From an uncultured archaeon (lineage in GTDB: Archaea; Asgardarchaeota; Thorarchaeia; Thorarchaeales; Thorarchaeaceae), in the NCBI GenBank assembly GCA_964558645.1, contig CAZLEV010000002.1:345350-409349 (forward strand): a stretch of DNA of 64,000 nt. The letters are read 5' to 3'. The position numbers and the translations under genes were made by a program. Shown here piece after piece: positions 40,126 to 42,200 of this stretch (position 1 is the first letter of the stretch; every line of letters starts with the position of its first letter). The notes beneath the pieces were generated by a model. The model saw nothing but the letters and a program-made list of their open reading frames with translations, ran no database searches and was not told the DNA's origin.

Positions 40126-40201
40126 GGGCCGGTGGTCTAGGGGTCATGACATCGCTCTCACACAGCGAGAATCAGGAGTTCGAATCTCCTCCGGCCCACC
40201 A
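40126..40201 (+). tRNA. tRNA-Val(CAC), CCA encoded
   Basis: GGGCCGG/CCGGCCC acceptor, TCGCT-CTCACAC-AGCGA anticodon arm, TTCGAAT T loop. Confidence 0.96.
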
Positions 40202-40237
40202 CAACCAACCGCAGCACACTTGAAAGAGGCTCAACAC

Positions 40238-40453
40238 ATGCCAAAGCAGATCCACGATGTCGAGAAATTCCTTGAGATGACCGAGGATGCAACTGAATGC
40301 CGCGTCAAGAGGGGTTCAGACCAGGTCAAGCTCAAACTACGAACCACCAAGTATCTCTATACACTCATTTTGGAGCCACAAGAGGCCGAAACAGTTATTG
40401 AACAGGTCAAGTGTCAAGTTGTTGAGGCACGACCAGAACCAGAGGAGATCTAG
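40238..40453 (+). CDS. rpl38e: 50S ribosomal protein eL38
   Basis: MPKQIHDVEKFL...VKLKLRTTKYLYTL. Confidence 0.88.
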   Translation: MPKQIHDVEKFLEMTEDATECRVKRGSDQVKLKLRTTKYLYTLILEPQEAETVIEQVKCQVVEARPEPEEI

Positions 40454-40932
40454 AAAGAAGCAATCCCCCTCCTTTTCTAGTTGAAGTGTGCAACAAGAAT
40501 GTCATATTACTGTCAGATACCCCTATTCATTCACAGTCTACATCTTATAGGAGAATAAATGCCCGTAGCCAGACTCAATTCTGGGCTAGGCAAGTGGGCC
40601 AGTGCAGTTGCACGGAGCTCGCGGCCGAGGACCTGAGGGAAGTCTACTTCTCGACGTTGGCAACAACATCAAGATAGGTGATGATGATCCCGCCGTGGGA
40701 AGTACTGCGGAAACCCTCGCTGTGGCCGGGAGTGATGCCCCGGTACAAGCACAGGAGGAGGACACCCGGTCAGTGGGAGGGATACCATCCCCATCCTCAC
40801 GGACGATGCCCCTGTTGACTCGGATGTCCTCTGGACGTCTGGGAGTGGTGACACTGGCAGGGGAGGGGTGGAACGCAGAAGTCTCTTACAGGTGACGTTC
40901 ACTCACCAGATTGTAAGACACGGATTATCTAG
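40448..40932 (+). mobile_element. ORF-less 479-bp insertion element (long copy) bounded by ATCTAG direct repeats
   Basis: ATCTAG at 40448-40453 and 40927-40932; both ends align without gaps to the insertion at 59063-59245; removing it leaves rpl38e and the convergent gene 2 bp apart. Confidence 0.7.
40566..40918 (+). ncRNA. Large structured RNA of unassigned class inside the insertion element
   Basis: GNRA hairpins GTTG-GCAA-CAAC (40656-40667) and AGTG-GTGA-CACT (40844-40855); long stem GAGGACACCCGGTCAGTGGG/CCTGTTGACTCGGATGTCCTC (40758-40831); long-range ACCTG/CAGGT and ACTTC/GAAGT; GC-rich with G-U pairs on the plus strand. Confidence 0.6.
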
Positions 40933-40934
40933 CG

Positions 40935-42200
40935 TTAAATCTCCACGGTTTCATCAGTTTCGGGGACATGAGCAGTTCTGCCTTTCTTTGTGAGTTTCTC
41001 CTGAAGTGCATCAGCTGATTCCGACTCACCGTGTACAATATGGAACTCAGGCTCGCCGGGGATTTTCATGAGCAAGTCCAAGAGACCCTCTGAGTCAGAG
41101 TGGCTACTCAGATGATGATACATGATCTGAGCCTTCACGTCGTACTCTCTATTGCGGATAGTGACCTTTTTCTTCTCGAGAAGTTCTGCACCGGGTGTTC
41201 CAGGAATCTGATAGCTCACCAGCACAATGGCATTGTTAGGATTATCATGCACATCCAAGAAATACCTGTGTGATGCACCACCCTTGAGCATGCCTGCAGG
41301 TGAGATGATGATGCCATTGGACTGTGCGGCCATCTTACGGTCCTTGTTGGTCCGAATAGTCCGAGTCCTCTGCATCGCCTGCTTGAATGCCTTTGGCGAG
41401 CCTATGTAGTTCGGATGCTTCAAGATTATCTCATTCACTTTGCGGGCCATTCCATCAACATAGATAGGGTACTCTTTCGGAATGTCATACTGCTCAAGGA
41501 TACACATGATTTCTTGGCTACGACCCACAGCAAACGCTGGAATCAAGACTGTGCCACCTCGTTCTAGGGTTTCGAGAACTGTATCAACGAGAGCATGTTC
41601 GATTTCTTCTCGGTCCGGGTTTCGTCTTCTGGCATATGTGCTCTCAGTGACGACCACGTCGTGCTTTGGCAAATTCTTCCTCGCACCGGAACAGAGTCTT
41701 GATTCGTTTCCATTGAAATCGCCAGTGAATAGCACTCTCTTTCCATTCACTCTAACCGATACCATAGCGCTTCCAGGAATGTGGCCTGCATTGAAGAGCG
41801 TTATCTCAAAACTGCGGCCCAGTGGAAAGGTTTCTTCGTAGGGTGTATGGTTGTACTGCCGCCTCAGGCGGGTTATGTCTTTTCGGGTGAATGGAAGACG
41901 ACCTTTAGAGATATGATACATGTCACGAAGAAGGAGCATCGTAAGATCACGAGTTGCAGGAGTGCAAAAGAGTTGAACGTCAGGATTTTTCAGGATGATT
42001 GGGACGCCGCCCGAATGATCAAGATGTGCATGAGTGATTGCAACGCCCTGTAGGTCATGAGTTGGTACAGTGGCAGGAAAAGCTGGGGGGTTCTGGAATT
42101 TGACGCCGTAATCTACGAGCATGGATTCTCCGTTTTCTTCGATAAGGAATCCTGAGCGTCCAATCTCTCTACAGGAACCCAGAAATGTCAATTTTGTCAT
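40935..42200 (-). CDS. MBL-fold beta-CASP ribonuclease (aCPSF2-like)
   Basis: THAHLDH, AGHIPG, FTGD, SSHSD, VHGE. Confidence 0.9.
   Translation of the reverse strand: MTKLTFLGSCREIGRSGFLIEENGESMLVDYGVKFQNPPAFPATVPTHDLQGVAITHAHLDHSGGVPIILKNPDVQLFCTPATRDLTMLLLRDMYHISKGRLPFTRKDITRLRRQYNHTPYEETFPLGRSFEITLFNAGHIPGSAMVSVRVNGKRVLFTGDFNGNESRLCSGARKNLPKHDVVVTESTYARRRNPDREEIEHALVDTVLETLERGGTVLIPAFAVGRSQEIMCILEQYDIPKEYPIYVDGMARKVNEIILKHPNYIGSPKAFKQAMQRTRTIRTNKDRKMAAQSNGIIISPAGMLKGGASHRYFLDVHDNPNNAIVLVSYQIPGTPGAELLEKKKVTIRNREYDVKAQIMYHHLSSHSDSEGLLDLLMKIPGEPEFHIVHGESESADALQEKLTKKGRTAHVPETDETVEI

Follow-up and report, generated by a model that had tools for sequence, protein, structure and literature searches.

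A window of 64,000 nt (the whole stretch of DNA that was analysed) from the genome of an uncultured archaeon of the Thorarchaeaceae contains about 350 nt that an initial annotation took for a structured RNA resembling, but not fitting, RNase P or SRP RNA, which raises the question of what this RNA is and how it came to lie where it does. Our analysis indicates that the segment 40454-40928 is probably an ORF-less element, non-autonomous and derived from a transposon family of Thorarchaeota, that carries a gene for a TnpB omega RNA. Its RNA is of a known functional kind, the stand-alone TnpB omega RNA, found here in a little-studied family of Cas1-TnpB transposons. An early suggestion that the locus holds a guide or bridge-type RNA on a mobile element was therefore essentially right, the unit being the omega-RNA module of a TnpB element. 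A new RNA class, which had also been proposed, is not supported, as full-length copies have the unit joined to tnpB without a break, and omega RNAs that stand alone have already been described (Altae-Tran et al., 2023, PMC10691335, citing Altae-Tran et al., 2021; Meers et al., 2023, 10.1101/2023.03.14.532601).

The insertion can be read directly from two genomes of the same genus (G006 and G022), in which the locus is uninterrupted and a single ...GAGATCTAG runs directly into the right flank. Compared with these empty sites, the window has gained 475 bp (40454-40928) and a second CTAG, leaving copies of the target (unstranded) at 40450-40453 on the left and 40929-40932 on the right; the window copy was inserted after its species split from the two sister species. 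The TAG of the left CTAG is the stop codon of a gene for ribosomal protein L38e (Pfam match, E = 2.7e-13), and the insertion point coincides exactly with this stop; a convergent, minus-strand gene for a beta-CASP RNase (40935-42200; its beta-CASP domains are Pfam matches) has its stop 2 nt away. None of the ORFs in the 475-bp insert matches Pfam. The adjacent 421-aa minus-strand ORF was considered as a TnpB and rejected, since by Pfam it is the beta-CASP/metallo-beta-lactamase RNase, and minus-strand coding of the segment itself, plausible by eye, was rejected for lack of a consistent frame.

The element belongs to a repeat family. Whole-genome BLAST recovered long copies with identities of 77-93%, about a dozen in all, together with several short copies that match the last ~80 nt only. 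These mini-copies are ~170-174 bp long and retain ~98 nt of the left end plus the last 80 nt; one further member lies in the window itself (59063-59240, equal to C2:404412-404589, + strand), where ATCTGGAAT stands on both flanks of a ~98-nt left end joined to an 80-nt right end, with the RNA core absent. As mini-copies transpose with the last 80 nt and the left end, the RNA core is dispensable for movement. The RNA unit was found in 40 of the 61 sampled genomes of the same taxonomic family, mostly in multiple copies. Gene callers miss the repeat family or label its copies as 100-aa hypothetical proteins.

Identical C-N-N-G sequences occur on both flanks in nine of the 12 copies with both ends defined, the variants being CTAG, CAAG, CAGG, CTTG and CTGG, always preceded by T; they are target-site duplications of 4-5 bp. 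IS200/IS605 transposition by a Y1 transposase leaves no target-site duplication. We rejected Y1 peel-and-paste movement of the IS200/IS605 type, given the C-N-N-G duplicated on both flanks and a search for the Y1 transposase domain (PF01797) that found none in this genome, which is 92.8% complete. Nor was a transposon-adjacent motif (TAM) distinguishing filled from empty sites evident, CTAG being duplicated on both sides. The short C-N-N-G duplication fits a Cas1-type integrase.

What the family encodes becomes apparent from its full-length copies, in which the RNA unit is ~435 nt long. Two copies of the unit are continuous with ORFs of 558 and 561 aa for which Pfam Cas12f1-like_TNB, NCBIfam guided_TnpB and solved structures of TnpB are all matches. 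Starting just past the RuvC-III motif NADRNGAINIA, the unit covers the last ~100 tnpB codons (which end in ...GGIPS[RQP] and a stop codon at +296) and continues for ~140 nt to the right end of the transposon; it lies on the tnpB strand and reaches the right end in C26, in C2:431076-432761 and in many loci of relatives. TnpB omega RNAs are placed and oriented in just this way, overlapping the 3' end of tnpB in the direction of the gene and reaching the right end. This genome contains four TnpB genes of the family (C26, C2:431094-432749, C10:75244-76809 and a partial gene on C28), and a protein-profile scan recovered 80 TnpB loci, almost all from Candidatus Thorarchaeota MAGs.

The arrangement parallels the omega RNA (reRNA) of ISDra2 and the IS200-IS605-IS1341 group, which is likewise encoded on the tnpB strand, from within the 3' end of the gene to the right end, by elements whose TnpB shares the RuvC fold and the zinc ribbon (TNB domain). 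The Thorarchaeota scaffold is two to three times larger than the characterised TnpB omega RNAs of the ISDra2 type. The Thorarchaeota proteins also differ from that group in a C-terminal tail of ~110 aa and in a RuvC-II Glu-to-Gly change, and the elements in their target-site duplication. The aspartates of RuvC-I (LGIDLG) and RuvC-III (NADRN) are invariant, and glycine, in a GR motif, replaces the canonical RuvC-II glutamate in all 13 aligned TnpBs; a Glu in the motif PE(x)WTS is invariant as well. For TnpBs with a rearranged RuvC-II, a compensating Glu has been predicted, in a configuration predicted to be active (Altae-Tran et al., 2023, PMC10691335).

In the short copies, a left end of ~130 nt takes the place of tnpB upstream of the RNA unit. 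The left end of the window element (40454-40582, + strand) is 92-93% identical to that of the copy on contig C9 and carries TGTCATAT/TGTCAGAT boxes. The AT-rich, promoter-like sequence noticed at first inspection, TTATAGGAGAATAAATG, is indeed present; it is a BRE/TATA-like sequence at ~40545-40561 that precedes the RNA start by some 25-35 nt and takes the form GGAGAATAAATG in the window, and other subfamilies have GGAGGAGATTATATA at an equal distance from GGACTAGG. We regard this box as a putative promoter, and because it stands ~25-35 nt before GGRCTAGG, a transcription start near the first helix is plausible.

The strongest support for a conserved RNA comes from comparative analysis. We aligned 35 Thorarchaeota units over 476 columns (alignment A1) and derived the structure with RNAalifold, which returned 94 pairs in 17 helices, 44 of the pairs with compensatory changes. 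Standard pairs form in 96.3% of the cells at these paired positions, against 42-45% when the 3' partners are slid, and 270 cells are changed on both sides, against 30-56 when slid; none of 500 shuffles reached the observed value of either measure. Individual pairs covary, as at A1 339-399 (CG in 20 units, UA in 15), 181-198 (AU 17, GC 16), 187-192 (GC 22, AU 13) and 348-378 (UA 16, CG 15), and the long-range pair 236-412 (UA 30, CG 5) connects the coding part with the region past the stop codon. Two further helices are supported, 156-160/205-209 (96.6% paired) and 298-303/328-333, in which two pairs carry 11 double changes each. The hairpin 121-125/134-138 has double changes at all five pairs, but shifts of register from one sequence to the next hold its pairing to 66%; it is probably genuine. 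The many conserved G-U pairs would read as C-A from the opposite strand, which places the RNA on the + strand. A brute-force search for additional helices gave results too noisy to rely on. The window sequence by itself folds modestly better than shuffles (z = -2.28; 2 of 100 shuffles). The strong structural evidence thus comes from the relatives rather than from the window sequence.

Mapped onto the window, the RNA unit spans 40583-40928 on the + strand, so the structured RNA reported by the initial annotation is real, with its borders of 40566-40918 corrected accordingly. Its 5' domain (40583-40646, mapped through A1 and its covariation counts) is followed by the junction of an internal deletion (40647-40655), by the intact 3' two-thirds of the omega-RNA scaffold (40656-40878), in which all pairs of the covarying helices named below form, and by a right-end module (40879-40928) conserved in all copies. 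A long-range helix, 40705-40709/40874-40878, is intact in this copy, and pairs that covary in relatives also form at 40716-40724/40750-40757, 40726-40729/40740-40743, 40764-40766/40867-40869, 40809-40816/40856-40863 and 40819-40824/40838-40843 and in the hairpin 40779-40783/40787-40791. A GNRA loop was confirmed: GTGA (40848-40851) caps 40844-40847/40852-40855, where relatives covary (UA 27, CG 8). Of the irregular stem proposed for 40758-40831, the core is borne out: it comprises the hairpin 40779-40791 and, outside it, the helix 40769-40774/40799-40804, two pairs of which show 11 double changes each.

Other elements of the first reading take on a different meaning. Motifs quoted at the outset are all present, GAGGGAAGTCT at 40635-40645, GCAGAAGTCTCTTA at 40875-40888 and GATGATGA at 40679-40686. 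The proposed long-range pairing of ACCTG.../...CAGGT and of ACTTC/GAAGT, reminiscent of P4, fails in the 35 relatives, being 55% and 79% paired with no real covariation, and these columns belong to other covarying helices. The box-C-like motif does not mark a C/D-box RNA and is instead a strand of a helix: GAUGAUGA adjoins the covarying helix strand GGUGA, and the Rfam snoRNA matches (E = 1.3-7.9) score far below gathering.

The window copy also lacks 87 nt (A1 columns about 89-175) that are present in all other long copies and in the relatives, a deletion bounded by the 9-nt direct repeats CTTCT[CT]GAC. It removes five helices, one of them invariant: the partners of helices 1, 3 and 4 are gone, their 5' strands remaining in 40583-40646, as are helices 5 and 7 in full, and the invariant CCGCGGC/GCCGUGG helix has lost its 5' strand. 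Helix 2 (40589-40599/40617-40626) and all helices between 40692 and 40878 are intact, and an intact sister copy lies at C9:22650-23220. With five helices lost, including the invariant one, the window copy is most likely a recent insertion that survives as a crippled relic.

The conserved tail of the element, ...GGATTAT, ends at 40928, the family terminus being ...GTAAGAAAYRGGTTAT. Just before it, arms TCTTACAG (40884-40891) and TTGTAAGA (40911-40918) form a terminal hairpin that encloses GTTCACTCA (40897-40905), a motif found in 50 of 51 scanned matches from related loci, with TTAACTCA in the remaining one. The variable stretch before GTTCACTCA has been suggested as a possible spacer-like guide (Altae-Tran et al., 2023, PMC10691335). 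In our data this stretch is 9-15 nt long, semi-conserved and nearly identical among the copies within one genome, and it is complementary to the sequence past the motif (TCTTACA/TGTAAGA, CTTTCAG/TTGAAAG, TTCTTGT/ACAAGAA, TCACAGT/ACTGTGG). RNAalifold predicted no structure in the 3'-terminal 70 nt, owing to the variable linker length, and the hairpin was instead evaluated by complementarity within and between sequences: arms match better within a sequence than between sequences (mean 5.65 against 5.14; 3 of 2000 permutations). Near-identity within a genome and arm complementarity together make this supposedly hypervariable stretch look like one arm of a terminal hairpin rather than a per-copy guide. 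Canonical TnpB systems suggest, by analogy, that the guide would come from the unique flank past 40928/40932. The candidate source, should the RNA extend past the right end, is 40933-40952 (+ strand), a stretch that is unique in the genome and takes in the final codons of the gene for the beta-CASP RNase.

The autonomous parent of these elements, about 8 kb in size, appears to pair tnpB with a second, much larger gene. In 39 of the 80 related loci a divergent gene for ~1420-1600 aa lies ~230 nt upstream of tnpB, and this genome has one, C2:426258-430829, adjoining the tnpB at C2:431076. An AlphaFold2 model of the first 300 aa of the giant protein (pLDDT 88) was compared with known structures: the top 24 Foldseek ranks were all Cas1, Cas1-fusion or casposase chains, and VIA-align placed 39 Cas1/casposase PDB entries at Z = 9.1-13.3 (rmsd 3.3-4.4 A over 149-195 residues), the best unrelated entry after this group scoring Z = 6.3. 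The N-terminal 230 aa are thus predicted to fold like Cas1. An alignment of the giant proteins contains the motif H...LDFxDMIR, presumably akin to Cas1, and further on GRADLV...E.KT, which we take to resemble the PD-(D/E)xK motif of restriction-type nucleases.

Sequence-level searches did not reach this relationship. Pfam gave no match on the giant protein, with PF01867 (Cas1) undetected, an HMM profile of its N-terminus matched no PDB sequence, and tblastn of the CRISPR Cas1 against the 80 related loci gave no significant match. In this genome PF01867 matches the canonical CRISPR-linked Cas1 only; in a wider scan, 18 of the 61 family genomes had a match, whereas three genomes scanned besides had none. 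Fold comparison was the only approach that revealed the Cas1 likeness of the giant protein. BLAST of the left ends of the short copies against the 80 related loci found no match beside any autonomous copy, and three loci (L081, L106 and L130) contain a second conserved coding region beyond the giant gene, which places the autonomous left end further out.

These loci match, in gene neighbourhood and motif rather than by phylogenetic placement, the aCas1-associated TnpB loci reported from Asgard archaea, in which GTTCACTCA occurs downstream of tnpB (Altae-Tran et al., 2023, PMC10691335; for aCas1, Makarova et al., 2020, as cited there). The groups Cas1H-Asgard-1 and Cas1H-Asgard-2 of that study likewise have Asgard hosts, a tnpB beside a Cas1-like gene, a conserved GTTCACTCA region downstream of tnpB and repeats flanking the locus. 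Our results differ in that the stretch before GTTCACTCA behaves as a covarying hairpin arm and not as a spacer-like guide, and the ORF-less derivatives, the 17-helix RNA model and the C-N-N-G duplication go beyond what the available portion of that article describes.

Taken as a derivative of such a transposon, the element would descend from an autonomous form comprising the giant Cas1-like gene and a divergent gene for the TnpB RNA-guided nuclease, and would have retained the two transposon ends, the BRE/TATA-like promoter of the left end and the ~435-nt omega-RNA gene. Transcription of the + strand would begin at about GGRCUAGG (40583), and the transcript would then fold into a multi-helix scaffold. 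TnpB supplied in trans by full-length copies in the same genome may bind this RNA, with the sequence transcribed from the DNA just past the right end presented as the guide. Insertion duplicates the short C-N-N-G target of 4-5 bp. The 5' and 3' ends of the RNA, its binding by TnpB and the position of the guide are placed here by analogy with known systems.

The same structure could instead serve the transposon in cis, as a regulator of tnpB or of the Cas1-like gene, as a cofactor of transposition or as a DNA end structure for the Cas1-like integrase, without acting as a guide scaffold. The unit is unusually large at about 435 nt, a terminal hairpin surrounds GTTCACTCA at the extreme end of the element, and the mini-copies that transpose keep the last 80 nt only, which implies that at least this part serves transposition; the guide function, for its part, is drawn by analogy. 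Yet the same mini-copies show that movement does not need the whole unit, which lies beside tnpB in exactly the place, and points in exactly the direction, that omega RNAs do. The G-U pairs and long-range helices further point to a structure in RNA rather than DNA, and the ORF-less elements retain the whole unit together with a promoter-like box, neither of which a mere transposase-binding end would need. We therefore consider a purely cis-acting role unlikely.

Conservation of the unit might also reflect protein coding, the stretch being a pseudogene of the TnpB C-terminal tail or a gene for a ~100-aa peptide with no RNA function. The tail is open and ends in ...GGIPS[RQP] and a stop in all full-length genes, and the 100-codon frame is still open in many ORF-less copies. 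The first ~296 nt of the unit are indeed also under coding constraint, with indels in multiples of three and a fixed stop codon, so that part of the conservation is not due to RNA and the stretch is dual-use. Against coding as the sole explanation, ORF-less copies have no start codon at the beginning of the frame, the window ORFs are without Pfam matches, and covariation reaches about 120 nt past the stop, with the pair A1 236-412 tying coding to non-coding sequence. ORF-less copies with broken frames (C9, C4_5 and C15_57) also retain 98-99% of their pairs, which argues for the RNA rather than a peptide as what such copies keep. We regard a purely coding origin of the conservation as highly improbable.

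The reading as a relative of RNase P or SRP RNA with a housekeeping role, or as a SINE-like derivative of the latter, has next to no chance of being correct. Superficial motif resemblances are all that favours it; Rfam gives no match at E <= 10 in the window copy or the intact copy, the genome has its canonical SRP and RNase P RNAs at other loci, the P4-like helix is not upheld in relatives, and the SRP-like 5' part is TnpB coding sequence. The last of these, GGRCTAGG...GCGGCC, encodes ...GLGKWASAVARSSRP... of the TnpB tail. The observation that the stretch fits neither RNA was accurate: neither RF00373 (archaeal RNase P RNA) nor RF01857 (archaeal SRP RNA) matches the window or the intact copy. 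A permissive scan of both strands of 40200-41300 (E <= 10) assigned no family, and it and a scan of the intact paralogous copy returned chance-level matches only; at gathering level the whole window has a single match, a tRNA at 40126-40198. This lack of a full-length match is explained by Rfam holding no model of the RNA family. The proposal of a mobilised, Alu-like SRP derivative fails likewise, the genuine SRP RNA lying at C6:184495-184807 (102.5 bits) and the RNase P RNA at C4:209083-209421 (153.9 bits), as the search for canonical genes elsewhere in the genome established. The omega RNA resembles RF00373 and RF01857 in length, G+C-richness, multi-helical form and a few chance motifs, and differs from them in being multi-copy and mobile, in overlapping a protein-coding tail and in matching neither covariance model.

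The closest functional parallels to the ORF-less omega-RNA elements are stand-alone omega RNAs and the PATE-like, ORF-less derivatives of IS200/IS605 (Altae-Tran et al., 2021, as cited in PMC10691335; Meers et al., 2023, 10.1101/2023.03.14.532601). Both are protein-less, multi-copy and mobile, keep their ends and a guide-RNA scaffold, have a compatible TnpB elsewhere in the genome and are presumed to act in trans. The Thorarchaeota elements differ in their 4-5 bp target duplication and absence of a Y1 TnpA partner, in a scaffold of about 435 nt as opposed to roughly 100-250 nt, in a BRE/TATA-like box of their own in the left end and in their Asgard archaeon host.

For annotation, these results remove a false lead, as this Asgard archaeon has no second RNase P- or SRP-like RNA at the locus, and they explain a repeat family. 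The family supplies a model, backed by covariation, of a TnpB guide-RNA scaffold of exceptional size, and its natural mini- and deletion variants separate what transposition needs (the last 80 nt and the left end) from the parts of the RNA. It also offers exact junctions and sister-genome empty sites for a transposon whose presumed transposase, a computational prediction, is a Cas1 homolog, together with evidence that the 'hypervariable' possible spacer of the literature is instead a hairpin arm. Asgard archaea are of interest for the origin of the eukaryotic Fanzor nucleases, a link that lies outside the present data. More tentatively, the ORF-less elements may be working, self-promoted guide-RNA genes with which a few Gly-for-Glu TnpBs police, or home to, the many insertion sites of a Cas1-driven transposon. 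If so, the ~435-nt scaffold would be among the largest TnpB guide RNAs known, and the family would provide the first concrete definitions of target site and ends with which to test an Asgard Cas1 homolog as a true transposase.

The 475-bp ORF-less element (40454-40928), which carries a TnpB omega-RNA unit, uses a CTAG target that includes the TAG stop codon of a small ribosomal protein L38e gene on the forward strand (40205-40453; Pfam E = 2.7e-13), itself located directly after a tRNA (40126-40198). In one of the two sister genomes in which this site is empty, a near-perfect palindrome, GGAGATCTAG-CTCTAGATCTCC, forms the ends of the two convergent genes that meet there.

Members of the same family also occur as short copies, one of them within the window at 59063-59240 (~174 bp), where ~98 nt of the left end and 80 nt of the right end are joined without the RNA core and both sides are flanked by ATCTGGAAT. 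Another mini-copy, at positions 184840-185008 of contig C6 of the source genome, is situated downstream of the genuine SRP RNA gene (C6:184495-184807), ~30 nt from it, and is one of three element copies that lack matching flanks. The sister genome with the palindrome also carries an ORF-less copy ~1.2 kb downstream of a cas1 homologous to that of the canonical CRISPR locus of the source genome (C4:107677-111516), in which at least 18 repeats of 37 nt are followed by cas1 and by ORFs of 96 and 212 amino acids, probably cas2 and cas4.

Within the omega RNA itself, an alignment of 35 units from Thorarchaeota (476 columns) revealed that an internal GUUCACC(A/U)U strand (columns 153-161) and the terminal GUUCACUCA motif (columns 439-445) are near-duplicates, and that a GGGUGA/GAGUGA strand (columns 204-209) is a potential partner for both. 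This arrangement may reflect alternative pairing or a pseudoknot.

About 17-23 kb past the window end, on the same contig, lies a full autonomous-type copy (C2:426258-432850; loci L132 and L014), in which a 561-aa TnpB with its own omega-RNA unit is divergent to a 1527-aa gene whose N-terminus is Cas1-like and which also has a PD-(D/E)xK-like motif. A second fragment similar to the right end of the omega RNA (…GGAACACAGAAGT…ATTCACTCC…; L132:1290-1440, C2:~426050-426200) occurs just past the giant gene's stop codon, where it adjoins a tRNA gene at the latter's 3' end. The source genome contains five more paralogs of the giant gene, with 28-30% identity, on contigs C10, C6, C30, C27, and C14. 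At three loci (the first ~500 nt of L081, L106, and L130), the giant Cas1-like gene is followed past its 3' end by another conserved coding region on the opposite strand, so the autonomous element probably carries at least one further gene.
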